Shown here one piece after another: positions 1 through 11,413 of a stretch of 64,000 bases of DNA; within the stretch, counting starts at the first letter, position 1, and each line of letters starts with the position of its first letter. The position numbers were made by a program, and so were the translations under genes. Where the stretch lies: NCBI RefSeq assembly GCF_052425735.1, contig NC_135769.1:30132001-30196000 (forward strand), given 5' to 3'. Under the pieces are notes generated by a model. That model saw only the letters and a list, made by a program, of their open reading frames with translations, searched no databases and was not told the origin of the DNA. The DNA is from Oculina patagonica. Its lineage: Eukaryota.

Positions 1-618
1 GACACTGAAGACGATATAGTCTCGAACTTTAAACAAGTATACGATTTCATGCCAAATCAATGTTTTCGTATGCTACTTTGCGCTCCGAGTAATATGGGAA
101 AGACTAATACTTTAATGCATATGATTTACAATTTATTATATTTCGATAAAATATATTTATATGCAAAAAATTTAGACCAGTCTAAATACCAGAATCTTAT
201 CAATGTGTTCCAACCAATAAGCGATGAAGCTGGTTATAACATTATTGAAGCTAGTAACGACCAAATAATTCCTGTTTCTAAACTAAATGATGATAATCAA
301 AAGCTCGTGATATTTGACGATTATGTTTGTGATAAAAATCAAAAACCATTAATCGATTATTTTATACAAGGGAGACATAAAAACTGTAGCGTGATATATT
401 TGTCTCAAAGCTATTTTAAAACGAAAAAAGACATAAGACTTAACTGTTCGCATTTCTGTATTTACGAATTCCCAAGTGCTAATGAGAGGGCACTGATATG
501 CCGTGAAAACAGTATTCCAAAAGAGCTATACGAGCAAGCAACTAAAGACCCATTCAGCTTTTTATATATTGATAAACCACGTAAATTCATAACAAAAAAT
601 TTCGATGAGAAGATTTAA
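1..618 (+). CDS. A32-like (FtsK/HerA) DNA-packaging ATPase, probably 5'-truncated by window edge
   Basis: Walker A APSNMGKT, Walker B LVIFDD, then QGRH-x3-SVIYLSQ and IRLN motifs of poxvirus A32/Polinton ATPases. Frame is open from base 1 (DTEDDIVSNFKQVYDF) into the Met at 49. Confidence 0.9.
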   Translation, partial: DTEDDIVSNFKQVYDFMPNQCFRMLLCAPSNMGKTNTLMHMIYNLLYFDKIYLYAKNLDQSKYQNLINVFQPISDEAGYNIIEASNDQIIPVSKLNDDNQKLVIFDDYVCDKNQKPLIDYFIQGRHKNCSVIYLSQSYFKTKKDIRLNCSHFCIYEFPSANERALICRENSIPKELYEQATKDPFSFLYIDKPRKFITKNFDEKI

Positions 619-637
619 TCTAACATATTAACAGAAA

Positions 638-2677
638 ATGGGGTACATTAATGACGAAAATGATTTTATGCATACCAAATATTCTCAAAGTGCAAAACCT
701 GCAATTGGTTTTAAACTGACAGCTTCTGGTGATTATGATATGGACAAGAAGAAAATATTCGATCTAAAAACTCAGGATGACGTAGCCTTTGATGCCGATC
801 TAGATACCTACGCCAAGGATTTAGGGAGTGCTGTCAATAAACGGTATGTTAACCAATTTTTAATGAAAAAAAACAGTGACGAAACACATTTTGATTGCGT
901 AGGTTTATCACTTCAAAATACTGAAGATTATTACGATGGGTTATATAATGACCGTTCAATACCGAATGTCAAATACGTGAATTTACAAGACAATAAGTTA
1001 AGATCAGAGCTAAATAACAAACTCACTGACAAAGCCGATCTTAGTACCAATAATGAACAAACGTTTAACAGCATAATAAATGTACCGAATTTCGATCAAG
1101 GCTATAGTAATATGTCTAACGTTATGAATAAAAGGTATATTGACTCAAGAGATGCGCTTAAAGCTGATAAAACATATGCCGATAGTACTTTTTTGACAAA
1201 ACAGACAGGTGGAATTCTAGCCCAATCTCTTCAGAGCAAGGCAGACAAATCGTACGCTGATGATACTTTTTTAACTAAGAAAACAGGAGGTGTCTTAGCT
1301 CAAAAAATCCAATACGTGCTTGATCATACGAGTGAATCACACGTTAGTCCAATTGATCAAAAAAATGTATTCGATAAAATTATGACAGATCAATACAATC
1401 AACTGTCTGAAGAAAATGACATTGAACTTGGTGACACAATTGAGCATCCAAATCCTGTTCATCAAATCAATAAAAAGGTGATAGATGCAAAATTACTTCT
1501 TGATAGTTCGAAAAATTACTACTCAAGCAGATTAGGTATCAACATGTACTCATATGAAATCGATCATTACACGATGATAATTGAAATATTTTATCCAACA
1601 GAAATTGACAAAAATACCATCGATATCGATGCCGTCTCATTATTAGACACCGTAAATAAAACAACTACACGAACTCATGATGATTATTCCAGAACTCTAG
1701 TACAAATTAATAAATATCAGCAACATCCCAACAACTATTTGTATATCGATATCGTCTTAAAAATGAAGTCTGGACACTCATATGTCCAAAAATTGCAAAC
1801 ATACCTCGTTATTTATGGGATTAAGAGCTTTCAAAGTAACGTTGATCCCACTATATACGATCAAATATATTATATAGCTAATGATCAAATTGTTTTCAAT
1901 ACACCAATCAATATGAATACACAGGCTATTTATGGTATTGAAGAAGGTACTACTGATGATCAAGCTGTGAATCTCAAACAGTTAAATAGTTACAATAATG
2001 CTCTCAAAATCTCCCTTGAAAACAAAATTAAATTACTACGACCCAAAAGTTATTATAATGAAGTGTTTGAATACTTTTTTGATTTATTAGATGTATCGAA
2101 TTTTACTATGTCAGATAGCAACGGCAGTGTTGTTTCTGGCTTAGGTAGTAATCTCGTTTTTCAAACTACTAAATTGTTAACAGAATTTGAACCAAAAGGG
2201 GGCTTTATAGGTGTTTTCGTAATTAATTTAAATGAAAATATCACTGAATCAAATGACTACACTATATATATATCATTTAAAAATGACTATAAACTCGGTG
2301 ATAATAAAAGAATTAAAATAGAATTAGGCAACGAGGGTAGCTTTCATTTCCCATGGATAAAAGTAGAGAATAATAAATTAGCACTTGAATATGATTTAGA
2401 TTCATATACAGAGCAAATCAGAGATGTTTATATAACTAAATTTTTAAACCTCTGGTATACTAAAATAGGGAATCAATTTAGAATCGCTGTTTGCAATAAT
2501 GCTATGAGTATTGATCAAACATTTTCTGGGTTTAATATCAATACATCTAGCATTAAAATTTCTTCAGATTACTTTGTACAAAGAATTGGTTTTAGTAACA
2601 CAGCAATGTCAGTGAATAGTCGAGAGTATCACAAAGTCCAATTTTTAGATAAAACAATGGGTATATTCTTCGAATAA
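638..2677 (+). CDS. Putative virion fibre/spike-like protein (679 aa)
   Basis: N-terminal GFKLT-x-GDYD motif, several neck-like motifs (SAVNKRYV, IPNVKYVN, VMNKRYID, DQAVNLKQL), a 26-aa internal repeat and a beta-rich C-terminal domain; adjacent to the packaging ATPase. Confidence 0.6.
   Translation: MGYINDENDFMHTKYSQSAKPAIGFKLTASGDYDMDKKKIFDLKTQDDVAFDADLDTYAKDLGSAVNKRYVNQFLMKKNSDETHFDCVGLSLQNTEDYYDGLYNDRSIPNVKYVNLQDNKLRSELNNKLTDKADLSTNNEQTFNSIINVPNFDQGYSNMSNVMNKRYIDSRDALKADKTYADSTFLTKQTGGILAQSLQSKADKSYADDTFLTKKTGGVLAQKIQYVLDHTSESHVSPIDQKNVFDKIMTDQYNQLSEENDIELGDTIEHPNPVHQINKKVIDAKLLLDSSKNYYSSRLGINMYSYEIDHYTMIIEIFYPTEIDKNTIDIDAVSLLDTVNKTTTRTHDDYSRTLVQINKYQQHPNNYLYIDIVLKMKSGHSYVQKLQTYLVIYGIKSFQSNVDPTIYDQIYYIANDQIVFNTPINMNTQAIYGIEEGTTDDQAVNLKQLNSYNNALKISLENKIKLLRPKSYYNEVFEYFFDLLDVSNFTMSDSNGSVVSGLGSNLVFQTTKLLTEFEPKGGFIGVFVINLNENITESNDYTIYISFKNDYKLGDNKRIKIELGNEGSFHFPWIKVENNKLALEYDLDSYTEQIRDVYITKFLNLWYTKIGNQFRIAVCNNAMSIDQTFSGFNINTSSIKISSDYFVQRIGFSNTAMSVNSREYHKVQFLDKTMGIFFE
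1160..1303 (+). repeat. Coding tandem repeat, 78-nt period, in the fibre-like ORF
   Basis: KADKTYADSTFLTKQTGGILAQ at 1160 and KADKSYADDTFLTKKTGGVLAQ at 1238, with many synonymous differences. Confidence 0.85.
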
Positions 2678-2697
2678 ATTATCTAACTCACTATTAT

Positions 2698-2814
2698 ATG
2701 AAAACTGCAGATTTAATACATGAGATGCTGAAAACTATTGAACGGTTGATTAAAAATATCAGAAAATTATACAACAGATTTAAAAATAGAAAGAAAACAT
2801 TGTCTAATCAATAA
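2698..2814 (+). CDS. 38-aa basic amphipathic peptide (below the ORF-track cutoff)
   Basis: MKTADLIHEMLKTIERLIKNIRKLYNRFKNRKKTLSNQ*. Fills the gap between two viral ORFs and has the same upstream TCTAA motif as its neighbours. Confidence 0.55.
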   Translation: MKTADLIHEMLKTIERLIKNIRKLYNRFKNRKKTLSNQ

Positions 2815-2817
2815 TAT

Positions 2818-3306
2818 ATGACAAAACAACGCAAAAATATATTCGAATGGAACCATATTAGTGACAAGTTAAATCAATCGCAAATTCAAGAATTGAAAGA
2901 ATACTACAAAGTTTATCATAAAAAGTGTTGGTGTTATAAAAAAGCTACAAAAAGCTTTAGAAGGCTGAAATTAATAGGCAATTCGCTGGCTATTTTATTC
3001 GCTTCAGGAGGCATAGTATCGTCCATTTCAACTGGTGGTATCAGCCTGATTGCAATCAGCACGGGAGCTTTATTGATACAAGGCTGGCTTCAGCATCAGA
3101 ATCTCGATTTAAAAATTCAAAATGGAATTTTTGCTTATCAAAGCTATCAGCATTTGCTTAATACAATAAAATTCATGTTAAGAACGGGGGAATATGAACT
3201 ATCCAATATCTTTTTAATGATGAAAACTACTGACGACTACATATGCGATACCGGTCCAATAATCGATCGGTATCTGCTCAAATATGATGATAAATTTACT
3301 GAATAA
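2818..3306 (+). CDS. Two-TM membrane protein, SLATT-like architecture
   Basis: Basic helix YKVYHKKCWCYKK, then a Gly/Ser-rich hydrophobic hairpin (LIGNSLAILFASGGIVSSISTGGISLIAISTGALLIQGW), then a helical C-terminus AYQSYQHLLNTI. ORF is solid; the family call is tentative. Confidence 0.55.
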   Translation: MTKQRKNIFEWNHISDKLNQSQIQELKEYYKVYHKKCWCYKKATKSFRRLKLIGNSLAILFASGGIVSSISTGGISLIAISTGALLIQGWLQHQNLDLKIQNGIFAYQSYQHLLNTIKFMLRTGEYELSNIFLMMKTTDDYICDTGPIIDRYLLKYDDKFTE

Positions 3307-3832
3307 TCCGTGCAATCTCAGCCGATTTTAATGCTAAAATCTCACCCCAATACCGATCATTAAAAGCTCGCGTTTTTTTTGATTCAGTAACACAGATGAA
3401 ATTGTATGGGATACCGAGCATTTTAAACAGCTGTCTTATAATATATTTCGTTGAGATCATCCTCTTTCTTCTTTTATTTATAGATGGAAGAATAGTGTCG
3501 ATCTCATGAAACACTTTGTAAATCTTATCGCGCTGATTATGAGACAATTGAACTCCATTTTTAATACATAAATCGTTTAAAACATTCCTAATATGGTATT
3601 TACGATGATATACCGATTTTCGCCGTATTCTATGCATATTCTCATAAAAATCAAAATACTCGCTAACATATTTATAATTCTGAGTCCCGCAATTTTGGCA
3701 TACTTTCATATATGCATCTTCCAAAATATCAGGTTTATCACAGCAATGATCAACAACTTTATCTCCTGCATATAATAACTCATTGCAAAAAATACAAGAA
3801 CCCTCGCTATGTATCTGTGTATCACAAAACAT
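3296..3832 (-). CDS. VLTF3 (poxvirus A2)-like late transcription factor with TFIIB-type Zn ribbon
   Basis: CCDKPDILED-x4-VCQNCG ribbon; YHRKYHIRNVL, F-x2-I, RKRMISTKYIIRQLFKMLG and SKKT-x4-DRYW-x2-I parallel the VLTF3 blocks YKRxNHF, RKNFLSYxYVLxKxxxLL and KSxxKLxxxDxxWxxI. Likely start is MFCDTQ at 3832 rather than 3868. Confidence 0.78.
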   Translation of the reverse strand: MFCDTQIHSEGSCIFCNELLYAGDKVVDHCCDKPDILEDAYMKVCQNCGTQNYKYVSEYFDFYENMHRIRRKSVYHRKYHIRNVLNDLCIKNGVQLSHNQRDKIYKVFHEIDTILPSINKRRKRMISTKYIIRQLFKMLGIPYNFICVTESKKTRAFNDRYWGEILALKSAEIARIIQ

Positions 3833-3862
3833 CTTATATATAAATATATTTATATAAAGATG
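3830..3862. promoter_or_regulatory. Palindromic AT-rich element with an outward-facing ATG at each end (candidate bidirectional promoter)
   Basis: CATCTT-A-TATATAAATATATTTATATA-AAGATG is a perfect inverted repeat except for one bulged A. Confidence 0.55.
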
Positions 3863-4268
3863 GTTCAAGGCAATAGAATTAAGTTATGAAGACTATCGTC
3901 GAGTTTGTCTATGTTTGCATGCATTGTTATATCGTCTAAAATGCAATTATGGAAACACTCGTAATTGAATACGCAACGCATATAAACTTTACTCAAAAAG
4001 TTTATAATAAAAAAAATTCTTACTCATGACCTTGGAAAGTAATGATGACTCATTTTCATGGGAAATCCCCTATAGTTGCTTGGCAGAGTAAGACATCTTC
4101 ACAAAAATATTTCACAAAATGAATAATGTTTTTACAAAATATTTCACAATTGTGTAGCAAAATGTGAAGTTTTTGATTGGCTAAAAAATCATATGAAGAA
4201 GCATTTTAAATATTAATCATTTCAAAACCGTTGGGGTTCCAGCCCTGATTTGCAGATGTCAACTTAAG

Positions 4269-4333
4269 CCAAAACCAAAAAACGAACCAACTTTTCAACC
4301 AAAACCAAAAAACGAACCAACTTTTCAACCAAA
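4269..4333. repeat. 30-bp perfect direct tandem repeat (x2) in viral intergenic region
   Basis: AAAACCAAAAAACGAACCAACTTTTCAACC at 4271-4300 and 4301-4330. Confidence 0.95.
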
Positions 4334-4448
4334 TGGTTTAATTATGGGCAAGAATTCATGCATTATTAAATATTAATCATGTTACGCATCTGTTTATATC
4401 TAAACGCACTATAACTGGTATAAAGAAATAATATATAGTATTATATTA

Positions 4449-4673
4449 ATGGGAAGGAATCTTAAATACGATAATGATGAAGACAGACGTAACGCTATTA
4501 CTAAATCAAAGACGAAATACATGCTTAATAAGCCTTGGTATTGTGATATTTGTGAATATCACAGTTGCCTTGCAGGAAAATGGAGTCATATGATGACCAA
4601 AAAGCATATTAAAAATGCTGTTATTAAAGCTCTTGAAGATGATGATCGGTTTAATATTATACCTGATGAATAA
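4449..4673 (+). CDS. Small C2H2 (U1/matrin-type) zinc-finger protein
   Basis: WYCDIC-x11-H-x5-H (CDICEYHSCLAGKWSHMMTKKH) preceded by a basic helix. Confidence 0.7.
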   Translation: MGRNLKYDNDEDRRNAITKSKTKYMLNKPWYCDICEYHSCLAGKWSHMMTKKHIKNAVIKALEDDDRFNIIPDE

Positions 4674-4860
4674 CATATAAAGAAAAATTATATAATTATA
4701 TATTGTATAGCACAGTATATATGAATTGCTGTTATCTGTTGCCTTAGGTGACCAAAAATATATTTATTTCTGGTTATCTTTTGAACACACCAAAAATCTA
4801 AAAAATTATTTTTTACTATAGATACTTAAAGAAATGGTAATTCTATATAGTACATAAAAA

Positions 4861-7800
4861 ATGACACAAAAAAATATCTCAACCAATATTAATATGGACG
4901 AATCTGATCTCAACAATCTATCTAAAACCGACCTTATAAAACTCATTTTATCACTAAAAGCCGAACCAAAAGCACACGAAAACCAAAAAGCCCAACCAAA
5001 AGCACACGAGCACCAAAAGGTCGAGCCGAAAGCACACGAGCCCCAGAAGCCGAATCAATGCCCCACCCCCTCGCGTAAAATACCAAAAAAGAAGACATAC
5101 CAATCTCATTCAAATACTCCTAAACCAATAACAAAAACCCATAATACTCTTAAACAACTATCAAAAAGTTACCTGAGGGATGCAAAGGCACTAGGCTATA
5201 CATGGATAGATCTTGTAAAAAACTCAACAAGGCAAAAAGTAATCAATAAAATTCAAACCGATAAGACCTTAAACAGGACACTCAATGAATTTAATTTCGA
5301 TGACAGTATTTTTGATTCAACATCCAATGACCAACCTCTATTCAAAATAACGGAAATCGGAAATACAGCGAATAAAAAATTCAATGCTTATACCAATGAA
5401 TTCAAAATAAATGTACGAAAAAATTTCATAAACAATAAAAATGATGTTTTCAGTGTATTTGAAAAAATGGTTGAAATGACAATAAAGAAAAGGCAGTTAA
5501 AAGGTAATGATAGATTCAGATTGGTAATTTCAAATGATGAATTAGATCATCCTATCTCAACAAAATTGTTAAAAGTTTCTGATTTCAAGTTAAATCAACT
5601 TTTAGATGTAATCAATACGTTGGAGTATAAAGAAATAAATTTAGAAAATTGCAAAATAATTATTCAATCTGTTAAAATACCTTCAGGTAAAGGTCGACTA
5701 TATTTATCAAAACAAACAGTAAATAGGAAACAATGCATTATCACAATAAAAAACACCGACTCAATATGCCTTGCTAGGGCAATAGTAACAGGTTATGCTA
5801 ATTTACACCCTGAGAATTACACTACAACTCAGTTGAAAGATGGATTCAATAAAAGTAGGAAACTACAACAAATTCAAGCCAAAGAGCTACATAACAATGC
5901 TAATGTTTCAATAAACGATTATGGAAATTCTTTAGAAGATGTAAATAGCTTTGCATTACATTTAGATGTAGAAATAAATATAATCGATAGTGAGCAATTC
6001 AATGAGATTATATATACTTCCAATAAGGGAAAAGCTGATAAAATTTATCTATACAAAACACGGAATCATTTTGATGTTATAAAATCAATGACAGCTTTTT
6101 TAAATGTAGCATATTTCTGTCATTCTTGTAAAAAAACTTATACGAAACGTGATAAACATAAATGTCCTCAGAAATGCTTATGTTGTTTTAAATATTTTTC
6201 AGATGGTAAAAAATGTGATGGTAAAGACGTAACCTGCAATCACTGCAATCGTGTTTTCCATGGTAATAGTTGTTTTAAAAACCATACTAGTAACCGATCG
6301 AAAAAAGATGGAAATGATTCAGTATGTAGCAGTGTAGCAAAATGTTTAAAATGCAATCAAATCATACTAAAACCATATATTAAAATACATAAATGCGGTT
6401 TCAAAATGTGTAATAACTGTAATAAATATTGTGAAAGCAAACATGAATGTTTCATGAAAAAGATAAAAGTTATGGGTGGAAATTGCATCAAAAATAGCAA
6501 AAAACCATGCCGATTAAATAAAAACATTCTCAAAAAAGATCATTGCTACTCATGTAAAACGTATAATGAAAAATATTTATTTTTTGATTTCGAATGTACC
6601 CAAAACACTGGAATACACGAAGTCAATTTAGCTATCTGTTATGATTTCGATGGTAATGAATTAATCTTCAATGATATTAATAGTTTTTGTAATAAAATCG
6701 TCAATGAAAAATATAAAGGATATACACTTTTGGCTCATAATAGCAAAGGGTATGACAGTCATTTTATACTAAAATGGTGTATAGATAATGGTTTCAAACC
6801 TTATTGTATTTACAATGGTGCAAAAATTATGATGATGGAAATTTCACAATTAAGAATCAAAATAATCGACAGCTTAAATTTCATTCAACAATCGTTATCA
6901 TCGTTTCCTAAAACGTTTGGTTTAAACGAGTTGAAAAAAGGATATTTTCCACATTATTTCAACAAAGTTTGTAATCAAAAGTATATAGGAGAGATGCCTT
7001 CCAAAAAACATTATGGCTATAATCAAATGAAAACAGAAGATAGACAGAAATTTTTACAATGGTATGACGATCGTGTTAATGAAAATTATGTTTTCGATTT
7101 CAAAAAAGAGATAGTTGAATACTGTCGTTCGGATGTTGATATATTGAGGCGATGCATGCTAAAATTTAGACAAGATTTTATAAATGAAGAAAATATTGAT
7201 CCACTAAAATACATCACAATAGCTGGTGTTTGTATGGCTATTTATAGAGGTAATTATATGCCTAAAAATACCATAGCTGTAGTTGATAACGTTGTTCAAA
7301 CAGAAAACCATAGTGCAGTCAGTATTGCATGGCTTGATTACATTGCTGAGAAAAATAATATTAAAATCCAACATGCCTTAGAAGGTGGCGAAAAAGTTAT
7401 CAATAACAAATTAAAAGTAGATGGATTTTGTGAATCTACAAAAACTGTTTATGAATTTCAAGGTTGTTTCTGGCATGGTTGTCCAGATTGTTACAAGCCT
7501 GATGTAATCAATAATAAGAATCAATGCGATATGGGTACTTTATATAATAAAACAAAAGCTAAAAACAACAAAATAACGAGTGCTGGTTACAATCTTATTG
7601 AGATGTGGGAATGTAAATTAAAAAAGGATAAAAGTTTTCAGAAATATTATAAAAATGATTTGAATAGAGAAGTGGTTGGACCACTAAACCCAAGGGATGG
7701 ATTTTTCGGAGGAAGGACTAATGCTTCCAAGCTCTTATACAATTTCAAAGATGGTGAATATGGTAAATATGTTGATTTCTGCTCCTTGTACCCAACTGTC

Positions 7801-9015
7801 CAGTTCTACAAGAAATATCCCATAGGTCATCCTGAAAAAATTATATCGCCAGAAAAATACGATAAGAAATGGTATGGATTCATAAAATGTAAAATTTTGG
7901 CACCAAGAGAACTATACCATCCTGTTCTGCCTCAAAAAATAAAATGTGAAAATTCTGAAAAGCTAATGTTCCCTCTGTGTATATCATGTGCTAAATCAAA
8001 GCAACAAGAAAGATGCCAACATAATGAAAATGAACGATCATTCATAGGCACATGGACAACCGATGAAGTCAACAAAGCCATTGAAAAAGGGTATAGAATT
8101 ACAAAAATATATGAAGTTTGGCATTTTGAAAACTCATCCGACGATCTATTCAAGGGATATATAAAAAAATTTATGAAACTCAAACTTGAATCAACGAAAT
8201 ATAATTTTAAAAATAACAATGACGAGATGAATTTCAGAAATAAAGTCAAAAAGAATTTAGATATTGATTTAGGTGAATTAAATGAAAATTCAGGTTTACG
8301 AGCCATTGCAAAAATGTGTTTAAACTCACTTTGGGGGAAATTTGGTCAACGAAATAACATGAATCAGTGCAAATACGTAACTGATATAAATGAATTTTAT
8401 CAAGTAGTTCTCGACGATACTATAGGTAATTTAAACATGAATTTCATAACCGATGAGATGGTACAGATGAGTTACACTTATAAGGATCAGTTTGTTGATA
8501 ATTCCTATAATACAAATATCTATGTAGCCTGTTTCACGACTAGCAGTGCACGGTTAATGTTGTATGAAAAACTAGACTATTTAGATAAACAGGTATTATA
8601 TTTTGATACAGATAGTATTGTGTATATCGAATCTCAAAATAGTAAGGTGATAGAAACAGGTGATATGTTAGGTGATTTAACAGATGAATTAGGGGGTGAA
8701 GCTATAAATAATACATTCGTTTCTGGAGGTCCAAAGAATTACAGTTTCACATATGGAAATAATAAACAGAAATGTGTTATTAAAGGTTTCAGGTTAAACC
8801 ATGAAAATTCCCAGATACTGAATCACGCAAATATGATTAAAATTGTAAAGAACGAAATCAAAGAACTCACATTAGTAAATGAAAATAAAATTACCAGACA
8901 GAATAAACAAATTGTAAACAAATATGAAGAAAAGGTATACACCTTTGGATATGACAAGCGCGCAATAAAATACATATCGGAAAGCTGTATAGAAACATAT
9001 CCTTATGGATATTAA
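4861..9015 (+). CDS. Protein-primed family B DNA polymerase (pPolB) with OTU-like domain, Cys-rich region and Vsr-like nuclease insertion
   Basis: Exo motifs FFDFEC, AHNSKGYD, YCRSDV; Pol motifs YVDFCSLYP, KMCLNSLWGKFGQ, YFDTDS, GPKNY. DSICLARAI...HFDVI upstream (OTU-like dyad). VDGF...YEFQGCFWHGC...EMWEC between exo and pol. No stops over 1384 aa. Confidence 0.97.
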   Translation: MTQKNISTNINMDESDLNNLSKTDLIKLILSLKAEPKAHENQKAQPKAHEHQKVEPKAHEPQKPNQCPTPSRKIPKKKTYQSHSNTPKPITKTHNTLKQLSKSYLRDAKALGYTWIDLVKNSTRQKVINKIQTDKTLNRTLNEFNFDDSIFDSTSNDQPLFKITEIGNTANKKFNAYTNEFKINVRKNFINNKNDVFSVFEKMVEMTIKKRQLKGNDRFRLVISNDELDHPISTKLLKVSDFKLNQLLDVINTLEYKEINLENCKIIIQSVKIPSGKGRLYLSKQTVNRKQCIITIKNTDSICLARAIVTGYANLHPENYTTTQLKDGFNKSRKLQQIQAKELHNNANVSINDYGNSLEDVNSFALHLDVEINIIDSEQFNEIIYTSNKGKADKIYLYKTRNHFDVIKSMTAFLNVAYFCHSCKKTYTKRDKHKCPQKCLCCFKYFSDGKKCDGKDVTCNHCNRVFHGNSCFKNHTSNRSKKDGNDSVCSSVAKCLKCNQIILKPYIKIHKCGFKMCNNCNKYCESKHECFMKKIKVMGGNCIKNSKKPCRLNKNILKKDHCYSCKTYNEKYLFFDFECTQNTGIHEVNLAICYDFDGNELIFNDINSFCNKIVNEKYKGYTLLAHNSKGYDSHFILKWCIDNGFKPYCIYNGAKIMMMEISQLRIKIIDSLNFIQQSLSSFPKTFGLNELKKGYFPHYFNKVCNQKYIGEMPSKKHYGYNQMKTEDRQKFLQWYDDRVNENYVFDFKKEIVEYCRSDVDILRRCMLKFRQDFINEENIDPLKYITIAGVCMAIYRGNYMPKNTIAVVDNVVQTENHSAVSIAWLDYIAEKNNIKIQHALEGGEKVINNKLKVDGFCESTKTVYEFQGCFWHGCPDCYKPDVINNKNQCDMGTLYNKTKAKNNKITSAGYNLIEMWECKLKKDKSFQKYYKNDLNREVVGPLNPRDGFFGGRTNASKLLYNFKDGEYGKYVDFCSLYPTVQFYKKYPIGHPEKIISPEKYDKKWYGFIKCKILAPRELYHPVLPQKIKCENSEKLMFPLCISCAKSKQQERCQHNENERSFIGTWTTDEVNKAIEKGYRITKIYEVWHFENSSDDLFKGYIKKFMKLKLESTKYNFKNNNDEMNFRNKVKKNLDIDLGELNENSGLRAIAKMCLNSLWGKFGQRNNMNQCKYVTDINEFYQVVLDDTIGNLNMNFITDEMVQMSYTYKDQFVDNSYNTNIYVACFTTSSARLMLYEKLDYLDKQVLYFDTDSIVYIESQNSKVIETGDMLGDLTDELGGEAINNTFVSGGPKNYSFTYGNNKQKCVIKGFRLNHENSQILNHANMIKIVKNEIKELTLVNENKITRQNKQIVNKYEEKVYTFGYDKRAIKYISESCIETYPYGY
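4960..5050 (+). repeat. Three 30-nt coding repeats at the pPolB N-terminus
   Basis: AEPKAHENQK / AQPKAHEHQK / VEPKAHEPQK. Confidence 0.85.
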
Positions 9016-9276
9016 TTTGACCTAGGGTTTGAGCAGAGCGAGCGATTTGATTTTTAAACGCACTAAGATCCAAGATTTTTAAAAAAGAGTATAAGAAGTT
9101 TTCAGGCTTGGTTTTACAGGCTTGGTTTTCTAGGGTTTGAATTTCAGTTTTTGATTCTAATATTTGATTCCAATATTTGAATCCATTTTTGTCCCATATT
9201 TTGTATCCAGCACTGGAAGTAGTGATGTACTACATCTCTAAGGCAAATTTGCCTCAGAGTGTAGTACATTACTACT
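9016..9276. repeat. Right terminal region (presumed TIR) with short internal repeats and terminal hairpin 9218-9276
   Basis: CTAGGGTTTGA x2, CAGGCTTGGTTTT x2, TTTGA(T/A)TC-type 13-nt unit x3, then AGTAGTGATGTACTACATCTCTAAGGCAAA/TTTGCCTCAGAGTGTAGTACATTACTACT. Partner TIR not in window. Confidence 0.75.
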
Positions 9277-10115
9277 GTCACGAAGGCGAAAACCCAATGA
9301 AAGAATCTTGTCACAATCCTTGGCTCTAAGGAATTTAGCGAGGATTGCTCTCGGCCTTGTGCTTTCACTGGTATTCTTTCCGACACGGTGAACTCTCTGT
9401 ATTTCAACTGTTCCCGCTTCCATGAAACCGAGCTCTCGTTCAAGGAAGCCGCGAATAATTTCTTCGGTGTCTTCTCTTTCATCTTCTTCGGGAATGTTTA
9501 CGAACTTGATAGTCTCGCGACGCGAGTATGCCTCCAAGTATAAATCTTTCGTTTTTAGCTGTTCTTGAAGCGCAGCTAATTCTTCCTGTTTTTTCCTGAG
9601 TTGAAGTAATTGGCTGCTGAATTTGTCCATTTGATCTTTAATTGCTGGTACAGTTGGAGAATTAGTTAGCTTCTCGTCCAACGTGTCAATTCTTTTGTTA
9701 ACGGCTTCGATGTCACATTTTGTCGATACCTCGGCTTCTTCCAGCTTCGTCATTCTCTTTTCAAGGCTAGCGAGGTTAGTCTCTACGTTCTTTACCGACA
9801 CTTCAATGTTATTTAATTTGACGAGTATTACCTCTAATTTGCTGGCAACTTCGTCGGTCATCTCAGGCGCTGTAGCAATTACGTTCTGGTCTTCTTCACC
9901 TTCGGCGATTTGAGATTCGTTCTCGTGGACCGTATTTCTTGGCTTTTTCGGTTCGTTTGCTTCCTCTCCTTCTGACCCTGATGACCGGTTTCTTCGTTTG
10001 GAAATAAAATTCGCAATAACCTCGGCCATAGGCTGTAAACAAGAAGCTAGAAAAGACTAAATTAGCGGGCGGGTTGTAGCACACTCTTTACGCCGCCATG
10101 ATCTCGTCCCAGTCA
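9277..10115 (-). mobile_element. 5' part of a LINE (L1/Tx1-type ORF1, ATG at 10029), interrupted by the Polinton
   Basis: Coiled coil followed by L1 ORF1 RRM motifs LEAYSRRETIKFVNIPE, IQRVHRVG, PRAILAKF. The last 12 aa of the listed ORF are read-through into Polinton DNA. Homology to the paralogous GPCR upstream region (~16130) stops at 10116, defining the 5' junction. Confidence 0.85.
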
Positions 10116-10405
10116 GTTTTCTTGCTATGCTGGCTAGTATATGCTTTGTTTTCACTTTCTTGATCTTCATCTTCCTCTAAGTGGAACAGACTTTCTTAGC
10201 AATCACGTGACTCGCTGTCATGACGTTCGTAATGATGAACTAAAAACATACAAACGAATTCTGGGAACATACAATCGAACCATTCCTTTTGTTTCTTATA
10301 ATTTAAGTTAAAGAACACTGACAAATGATATGAGACTTCAAATTGGAAGTAATCTTTCTCGGAGATGATGCCATGAATAACCTATACTATGTGTCATTTC
10401 AGGCA

Positions 10406-11413
10406 ATGATGTCTTCATTGAATGTGACTGTAGATTCAGGAAGTCTTCCTTATCAGAGATGTCTCATTTCTAACATTCCCGAGAATGTACAGCACACAGT
10501 GCGTGACGTCACCAACTTTATTGTCGTTCCTCTTGACATGCTGGTGGCTTTCTTGTCGCTGATAAGTAATTCCCTCGTTATAACTGCTGTGGTGCGTACA
10601 AGATCTCTTCAACATCCTTCACTGCTACTGCTGTGCAGTCTTTCAATAACTGACTTGCTGTGGGCTTTGTTTTCCATTGTTAGAGACCCCGTTAGATTTT
10701 CGCGTGCAGACCTTTGCCTTGAAGAAAGCGAGGAAGAGCCTTGGTTTGCTTCTTTATGTATGATAACAACCGTCGGTAACCTGGCCATTATAAGTTTAGA
10801 CCGGCGTTTAGCGGTAAGCAAACCATGGTGGTACCGTAACAATGTGAAACGATCACGTGTTTTCAAACAAGCATCTGCCGTTTGGCTTTATAGTTTGGCG
10901 ACATCGGGATTGGTTTACGCAAATGAACATTTCCTTATTCCTGGTATAGTATCGCTGGTTGCCGGCGCTGTATTGTATTTTTTTTGCATCCTTCTCATAA
11001 TTTCGTCTTATATTGGCATATTTATCGCAAATAGAAGGCACAAGCGCACTATGCATCAGCATGGCGGTCAAGTGCTCGCCGCGCTAAAGCGAGAGAAGAA
11101 ATTGGCAAACACGGTAGGTTTGATTCTGATAGTGCTTCTATTCACTTTCTTACCAGCACTTTGTTTCCCGATGGTTCTGTTAATATTGGGATATACCAAT
11201 TCAGAATTCCCTCCTTGGAGGCCATTATATGGTTTCTTTATCACCTTAAATGGGTTAATAAATCCACTGTTAAACTATGGACGGAATACAAACTTTCGTA
11301 GAGCAGTGCGTGACTTAATCCGGTGTCCCCAGTGTGCTGCAAGAGTACTGCCCATCCCTACTGAAAGAAATGAAACAGGCCGAAGAAATCCTTCCGTTGA
11401 GGTAGTTGACTAA
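10406..11413 (+). CDS. Class A GPCR copy A (adenosine/melanocortin-receptor-like, single coding exon)
   Basis: 7 hydrophobic segments; SNSLV, LSITD, DRR, NPLLNY motifs. Start placed at MMSS after a TTTCAG acceptor-like site, matching copy C. Confidence 0.9.
   Translation: MMSSLNVTVDSGSLPYQRCLISNIPENVQHTVRDVTNFIVVPLDMLVAFLSLISNSLVITAVVRTRSLQHPSLLLLCSLSITDLLWALFSIVRDPVRFSRADLCLEESEEEPWFASLCMITTVGNLAIISLDRRLAVSKPWWYRNNVKRSRVFKQASAVWLYSLATSGLVYANEHFLIPGIVSLVAGAVLYFFCILLIISSYIGIFIANRRHKRTMHQHGGQVLAALKREKKLANTVGLILIVLLFTFLPALCFPMVLLILGYTNSEFPPWRPLYGFFITLNGLINPLLNYGRNTNFRRAVRDLIRCPQCAARVLPIPTERNETGRRNPSVEVVD

Follow-up and report, generated by a model that had tools for sequence, protein, structure and literature searches.

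How a provirus integrated in an animal genome switches on its capsid genes is the question raised by a 64,000-nucleotide stretch of the Oculina patagonica genome (NCBI RefSeq assembly GCF_052425735.1, contig NC_135769.1, positions 30,132,001 to 30,196,000 of the forward strand; hereafter the window). Positions 1-9276 of the window are the right half of a provirus of about 17 kb that resembles Polintons and adintoviruses. An initial annotation of this DNA had noticed TCTAA shortly upstream of three consecutive start codons and had likened it to the late promoter of Cafeteria roenbergensis virus (CroV) and its virophage mavirus. The three sites lie exactly where they had been placed, at 619-623 (ATG at 638), 2682-2686 (ATG at 2698) and 2803-2807 (ATG at 2818), and they are real and not chance occurrences. 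TCTAA is very probably the upstream half of a two-part promoter signal, judging from its placement across related elements. The signal is very probably a variant of the nucleocytovirus and virophage late promoter in an animal polintovirus, and it does not simply repeat the tetramer of CroV.

The late-type signal and its distribution

The initial annotation had cautioned that only positional consistency supports the motif, and rightly so. TCTAA is not enriched across the window (149 matches, compared to 193.9 in shuffled sequence), and therefore position alone counts. The joint occurrence of the three sites at -11 to -20 was matched in none of 20,000 dinucleotide shuffles. The first late-promoter-like signal (619-637, + strand; core at -19) lies directly behind the stop codon of the packaging ATPase gene and precedes a 679-amino-acid open reading frame (ORF; 638-2677, +), a putative fibre-like virion protein by its position, with a weak YadA_stalk match. 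The second (2682-2697, +; core at -16, TATA ahead of the ATG) precedes a 38-amino-acid ORF (2698-2814, +) that is retained in related elements at 53-100% identity. The third (2803-2817, +; core at -15) lies within the end of that ORF, and is thus itself coding, and it precedes a SLATT-like protein with two transmembrane segments (2818-3306, +; SLATT_1 E 0.0024, below the cut-off), whose gene is convergent with that of a VLTF3-like factor. At the positions orthologous to these sites, related elements often have A instead of C.

The positional enrichment that the annotation had expected upstream of other genes holds across the whole element. TCTA occurs at -11 to -20, an interval picked to match the CroV spacing, ahead of 9/17 starts (1.41 +/- 1.11 in dinucleotide shuffles, none of 2000 of which reached nine) and ahead of 21/664 other ATGs. 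The 17 starts are those of the whole element except the integrase, which has no ATG of its own. The nine genes are those for the PLA2-like protein, the putative major capsid protein (MCP), an 81-amino-acid protein, the putative minor capsid protein (mCP), a 355-amino-acid protein, the three proteins described above, and the protein-primed DNA polymerase B (pPolB). MCP (427 amino acids) and mCP (255), the candidates for the double and single jelly-roll capsid proteins of Polintons, were so named for their size, location and conservation (735 homologues), and neither has a family match. A tenth gene has TCTA at -29. The tetramer is absent ahead of the genes for the protease, VLTF3, both zinc-finger proteins and a 129-amino-acid protein. 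In place of TCTAA, the DUF5679 gene carries TGTAA and the ATPase gene TATAA (at -19), and the VLTF3 start has a TATA before the ATG and lacks the TCTAA core.

The signal has the layout AT(C/G/A)TAA, 3-8 nt, TATA, ATG, and TCTA is one of its spellings. The middle base was C, G or A in 17, 2 and 6 cases in the window family, and in 6, 4 and 11 and 3, 4 and 6 cases in two other families; the TATA just ahead of the ATG is the more constant half. These families come from about 365 capsid candidates in the host's own 529-Mb genome, in which the provirus family is present in hundreds of insertions: about 95 close matches to the capsid gene of the window element, about 54 among the matches listed for a second family at 48% identity (the 48% family), at least 101 for a third (44-46% identity), and a fourth lineage (31% identity) that was reached through VLTF3. 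Searches of this genome aimed at further capsid lineages returned only the third family, and no capsid relatives were found in IMG/VR. Starts were assigned by homology, and the counts cover only genes for which homology gave a clear start. Core plus TATA was present in 24/27 distinct upstream regions of structural genes in the window family, 20/21 and 12/13 in two other VLTF3-bearing lineages, and 54/61 and 11/12 in two metagenome clades, where base shuffling predicts 0.6-3.3. The two other VLTF3-bearing lineages partly share a right arm; the counts of upstream regions are not independent events. When each lineage is represented by a single element and scoring is limited to the capsid module, the combination precedes 7/7 genes in the window lineage, 5/5 in the lineage with 44-46% capsid identity and 4/4 in that with 31%. 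In six metagenome loci it precedes 5/5, 5/5, 4/4, 4/4, 3/4 and 3/3 capsid-module genes; the metagenome loci are the best 80 of 187, and most are short.

Some relatives have a different upstream half. The 48% family is the sister of the window family in a quick capsid tree, which was drawn with midpoint rooting from 77 rows of 300 or more aligned residues and from which no direction was read. It has core plus TATA in 3/72 distinct upstream regions, a T-run plus TATA in 62/72 and the TATA part in 52/72. Three further metagenome groups have core plus TATA in 6/47, 1/27 and 1/42 and keep the TATA to varying degrees (22/47, 25/27 and 34/42). A metagenome clade comprising L049-L054, L068-L074 and relatives has A-rich upstream regions with AATAAA repeats ahead of the ATG.

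The suggestion of a per-gene signal that looks like a late promoter of nucleocytovirus type is thus supported, since genes of the capsid module show the enrichment both elsewhere in the element and among its relatives. The specific assignment to the TCTA of CroV and mavirus is not supported: an AT-flanked TCTA lies shortly ahead of the ATG at the nine starts named above, but the tetramer is not conserved as such, with C, G and A swapping within and between lineages. The CroV late promoter TCTA is common to mavirus, type-4 EMALEs and ChlorV, according to the available text of the reports (PMC8547959, PMC5294985, PMC13196603, PMC6723459). As in that system, the AT-flanked TCTA of the window element stands shortly before the ATG of structural genes in a small virus that integrates and encodes pPolB and an rve integrase. 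The window element differs in its variable middle base, in the TATA that forms the downstream part of the signal, and in having TCTA at about half of its genes, where mavirus reportedly has it at every gene. The window element also has its own VLTF3, an animal host and no known helper. The mimivirus late promoter, [AT]8 T[AC]T N4 [AT]5 [AG]TA[TG]A, is used by the virophages Sputnik, Guarani and Zamilon (PMC6510173, PMC11464507, PMC11998528). Our signal is as similar to this consensus as to that of CroV. The mimivirus promoter shares the bipartite layout and spacing, and 7/17 starts fit it with at most one mismatch, one of them exactly; however, our signal allows G in the middle and has a fixed AA behind the core. 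The mimivirus consensus is AT-rich and also fits 12/27 starts of a clade that lacks the core, and is therefore not diagnostic.

A VLTF3-like factor and a second class of signals

The VLTF3-like gene (3296-3832, - strand) belongs to the Pox_VLTF3 family by its match (E 9e-8; 32.4 bits, cut-off 25), and its product has a Cys-rich N-terminus and a predicted cyclin/TFIIB-type fold. In the model (mean pLDDT 69) the C-terminal 100 residues are confident, and a fold search matched cyclin-box proteins, namely ORC6 (Z 7.5, root-mean-square deviation (rmsd) 3.2, 89 aligned), cyclins, BRF (Z 6.3) and TFIIB (Z 6.2). This is moderate evidence that VLTF3, with its Cys-rich N-terminus, resembles a shortened TFIIB. 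Nothing appeared under E 0.1 when the VLTF3 profile was compared to sequences of solved structures, nor under E 0.001 in the Foldseek pdb and viral libraries. VLTF3 is carried by all three lineages of the host genome that have core plus TATA, and, among the metagenome loci, by the two long ones extending into that region (L045, L090). In L067 and L104 the core is present and no VLTF3 was seen, and their likeness to L045 ends at or before the expected place of VLTF3. That VLTF3 may read the motif is a correlation only.

In the 48% family there was no Pox_VLTF3 match. The idea that this family lacks a VLTF3-type factor was dropped after considering the synteny, fold list and zinc-ribbon homologue of a divergent gene of about 200 amino acids (L112:970-1596 and L115:997-1635, both +), which occupies the same place as VLTF3 and is convergent with the SLATT-like gene. 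Its model gave the same fold list as VLTF3, with ORC6 first (Z 6.6, rmsd 3.2, 86 aligned) and TFIIB second (Z 5.5). Of 37 homologues, one scores above the cut-off for the A2L zinc ribbon (E 1.8e-6), and 1/42 alignment members matches the ribbon; the genes of L112 and L115 are without the zinc-ribbon cysteines, which homologues retain. Of the top 40 rows ranked by the profile of the divergent gene, 39 are forward VLTF3 homologues, all at 8 bits or less. The ESM Atlas gave no usable match for it, and an A2L_zn_ribbon search of the host genome gave no match, which is not evidence of absence. The gene probably encodes a divergent VLTF3-like factor. If so, factor type and late-core type would differ together within one host, in one contrast.

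Replication genes have a different signal. (T/A)TAAAG occurs at -28 to -40 ahead of 6/6 pPolB variants, 4/8 zinc-finger starts and 2/55 structural starts (1.6 expected). In the window, ACTTAAAG stands at -37 of pPolB (signal at 4824-4860, +; gene at 4861-9015, +; DNA_pol_B_2 E 2e-42), and TATAAAG stands at -30 (4419-4448, +) of a 74-amino-acid Cys/His ORF (4449-4673, +) that is zinc-finger-like in its residues, with no Pfam match. The pPolB signal spans the TCTA at 4842-4845 ahead of the ATG at 4861, which the annotation had located exactly and mentioned beside its three sites. We place pPolB in the second class because (T/A)TAAAG is retained in 6/6 variants and TCTA in 4/6. This TCTA is followed by TAT and not by A, and is absent in two of the six variants; therefore it is probably the edge of a TATA part, and probably not of the late class.

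Upstream of VLTF3 is an extended CCAAT box (4174-4182, -), at a distance of 348 nt. Such a box occurs in 8/9 related regions, in two different contexts, with a chance expectation of 0.02-0.04 each. We take TGACTCA at 4046-4052 to be an AP-1-like site. The pPolB genes of the 48% family are without the TTAAAG signal; upstream of them in L111 and L114 are ATTTGCAT and TGAGTCA, presumably octamer-like and AP-1-like, respectively. In L090 the region upstream of VLTF3 contains a palindrome around TTACGCGTAA, in four copies.

Similar arrangements occur in viral metagenomes. Among the IMG/VR matches listed, CTTAAAGA followed by TATA(A/T)ATG opens an ORF of at least 60 amino acids in 47/82 matches preceded by a purine, compared to 5/37 others, and a preceding purine is also the state in window-type elements. 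Some of the genes behind these matches are of nucleocytovirus type (Pox_A22, Capsid_N). The late pattern, among the matches listed, opened an ORF in 35/120 cases against a background of 40/207, a slight excess. Our literature search found no report of TTAAAG acting as a promoter in viruses.

How the signals might be read

We favor a model in which the late promoter is read by host RNA polymerase II together with the element's own TFIIB-like VLTF3, and we give this model a probability of roughly 45%. In the first step, host activators in the nucleus and TBP would start the replication genes from the TATA-box-like (T/A)TAAAG at about -30, and host factors would start the VLTF3 gene from its CCAAT-containing region. 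In the second step, VLTF3 would let the polymerase start at the TATA beside the ATG of every late gene; the core lies no more than about 8-13 nt above that TATA, too close for a canonical TBP-TFIIB complex. In the third, each late gene would yield its own nearly leaderless mRNA despite intergenic gaps of about 20 nt.

A TATA at 2-14 nt before the ATG is no canonical polymerase II TATA box; it fits an initiator, as in the late genes of African swine fever virus (ASFV), and the distance between core and TATA calls for a non-canonical factor. The TTAAAG or TATAAAG at -30 has canonical spacing to a TATA initiator; this, together with the CCAAT box upstream of VLTF3, favors a nuclear cascade. Transcription of ASFV late genes begins inside a TATA initiator, their leaders have a median of 9 nt, and their upstream motif is too near for a canonical complex (PMC7163114). 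The TA(+1)TA initiator of ASFV with its close upstream motif, and the TATATA of pacmanvirus, compare well in the accessible text (PMC7163114, PMC11788076) with the TATA at the gene start, the very short leaders implied and the upstream element 4-12 nt away in our elements. They differ in that ASFV and pacmanvirus have their own RNA polymerase, TBP and TFIIB. Mriyaviruses keep VLTF3 and are without an RNA polymerase, in the part of the report available to us (PMC11253617).

Several points weigh against this model. The four runs examined, presumed to be RNA, consist of contigs and cannot show transcript starts. The core-plus-TATA pattern was derived from the present data, and therefore only other lineages test it; in the clades of L059, L085 and L052, scored for the core alone, the core is absent. 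Z-scores below 8 are weak for helical domains. Direct comparison of the divergent-gene and VLTF3 profiles gave no significant link (hhalign probability 0.1-0.3%), the divergent gene had no match in the Foldseek viral library, and the covariation of factor and core is a single lineage contrast. Profile searches recognized no VLTF2 or TBP in the element. The VLTF3 starts are without (T/A)TAAAG (3/3 scored), the regions with CCAAT are kin by descent within their two contexts, and in L090 there is no CCAAT and a late-type core precedes VLTF3 itself. Finally, the same grammar opens genes on giant-virus contigs, which fits a helper virus equally.

This last point leads to the strongest competitor, in which the element is virophage-like: a giant virus infecting the same cell would supply the RNA polymerase that uses the signals as promoters, as with mavirus and CroV or Sputnik and mimivirus, different cores would track different helpers, and VLTF3 would tune the helper's machinery. 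The seven starts that fit the mimivirus consensus with at most one mismatch compare to 0.68 expected. In 17 unrelated loci labelled as giant virus metagenome-assembled genomes (GVMAGs) and counted without their seeds, 63/93 starts have a TATA no more than 14 nt away (32.7 in shuffles), and the same starts have core plus TATA in 17 cases (7.6), T-run plus TATA in 18 (8.9) and (A/T)TAAAG in 7 (2.7); one match to core plus TATA opens a virophage capsid gene. However, these loci were chosen for holding one of the patterns, and TCTA is not enriched in them (3/93, compared to 4.4). EMALE types carry different motifs, reported as likely matches to different giant viruses (PMC8547959), and Polinton-like viruses occur in entomopoxvirus preparations (PMC11296320), both in the accessible text. 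Against a helper, the element codes for its own late factor, host-type boxes lie upstream of that factor, and no helper has been identified. The available text on stony corals (PMC11131425) describes expression of polintovirus capsid genes in control and heat-stressed colonies with no known giant-virus infection. A Capsid_NCLDV search of the host genome gave no match and also none in controls, and is not evidence of absence. Given the grammar of giant-virus contigs and the mimivirus fit, we consider this explanation possible and close behind the combination of host polymerase and VLTF3. A further extension is possible, though less likely than not: the several hundred intact proviruses of this animal genome would be provirophages whose capsid genes await the transcription machinery of undiscovered giant viruses of the host, with promoter core and TFIIB-like factor matching every family to a helper of its own.

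The signals might also be read solely by factors of the host (TBP or some other protein that binds AT-rich DNA), with VLTF3 a passenger or doing another job. All families, the 48% family among them, share the TATA part, and cores spelled with A read TATAA. We consider this improbable. Were TBP bound to a TATA box at 2-14 nt from the ATG, polymerase II would start within the gene, and the switch of core across a whole family would be left unexplained. Still less probable is a translation signal on a polycistronic mRNA, with the TAA tied to an upstream stop codon in stop-restart coupling. Gaps are about 20 nt, and the TAA of the core is the upstream stop codon before mCP and DUF5679. However, the core is separate from the stop in most genes, the 355-amino-acid gene and the ATPase gene carry the signal with no upstream gene on their strand, and the protease, which is the gene most likely to be coupled, is without it. 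A splice branch point (CTAA(C/T)) with an acceptor before the ATG is hardly credible, even though the site at 619-637 reads like a branch point plus CAG, because YAG occurs within the last 14 nt in 6/50 upstream regions, cores with G and A occur, and the 11 joints listed for the four runs of presumed RNA neither have GT..AG ends nor fall on the sites; chance is excluded by the shuffle tests given above.

The element, its host and its relatives

The provirus is bounded by 178-bp terminal inverted repeats (right copy at 9099-9276) and a 6-bp target-site duplication (9277-9282). Polintons characteristically have ends of AGT repeats and a 6-bp duplication, and the length of about 17 kb falls within the 15-20 kb of Polintons/Mavericks. 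It also has the gene set of that group: pPolB, an rve integrase (E 9e-14) with a chromodomain, an A32-like packaging ATPase (1-618, +; Pox_A32 E 5e-11; its start codon is 18 nt left of the window, and its upstream region was read from the adjoining L002), and an adenovirus-like protease (Peptidase_C5 E 0.009, under the cut-off). The integrase with chromodomain, PLA2-like, protease and putative capsid genes lie in the adjoining stretch L011. The insertion site is the first ORF of a LINE-type retrotransposon (window 9277-10029 and L011:1-2232), whose reverse transcriptase is in L011/L012, and a single-exon host GPCR gene (10373-11413, +) adjoins the insertion.

Other features were observed in passing. 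Two tandem 30-bp copies occupy 4271-4330, in non-coding DNA between the VLTF3 and zinc-finger genes, and L027 has one copy. Mosaic elements (L129-L146) combine similar right arms (fibre-like, 38-amino-acid, SLATT, VLTF3 and pPolB genes) with three different capsid modules, and one of them has a different polymerase type and HNH genes. The integrase frame, in the region of L011:4378, has no ATG of its own and no promoter signal. At 12/13 junctions, here and in 12 other loci, it is in the -1 frame and shares the last stretch of the PLA2-like gene, in several cases with a slippery-type A-AAA-AAC heptamer, so that a PLA2-integrase fusion through programmed -1 frameshifting is likely; the available text of PMC8502044 uses "frameshift" once, in another sense. 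By inspection, without statistics, gene 3' ends have no regular AATAAA, T-run or hairpin.

Stony-coral polintoviruses and adintoviruses resemble the window element in having pPolB, an rve integrase with chromodomain, ATPase, protease, a PLA2-like gene, terminal inverted repeats, VLTF3 in a subgroup, and many copies (PMC11131425, PMC8502044, as far as available). The word "promoter" is absent from the available text of these two reports, as are promoter classes and a divergent VLTF3-like gene. Nor did we find, outside subscription journals and supplements, which our search did not cover, any report of promoter motifs in animal Polintons or of VLTF3 as TFIIB-like.

Animal Polintons may be autonomous viruses or may be parasites of larger viruses, and the literature searched does not explain how their capsid genes are switched on. 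A promoter code of two classes, in which the late core is specific to each family and is matched by a TFIIB-like factor encoded in the element, makes the question directly testable. If the element's own factor retargets transcription, it would be a one-protein switch of host polymerase II. If a helper virus reads the signals, they would be a sequence barcode for finding the giant viruses of reef animals. And if the elements are provirophages, they would represent an inherited anti-giant-virus system in animals, of a kind so far shown only in protists.

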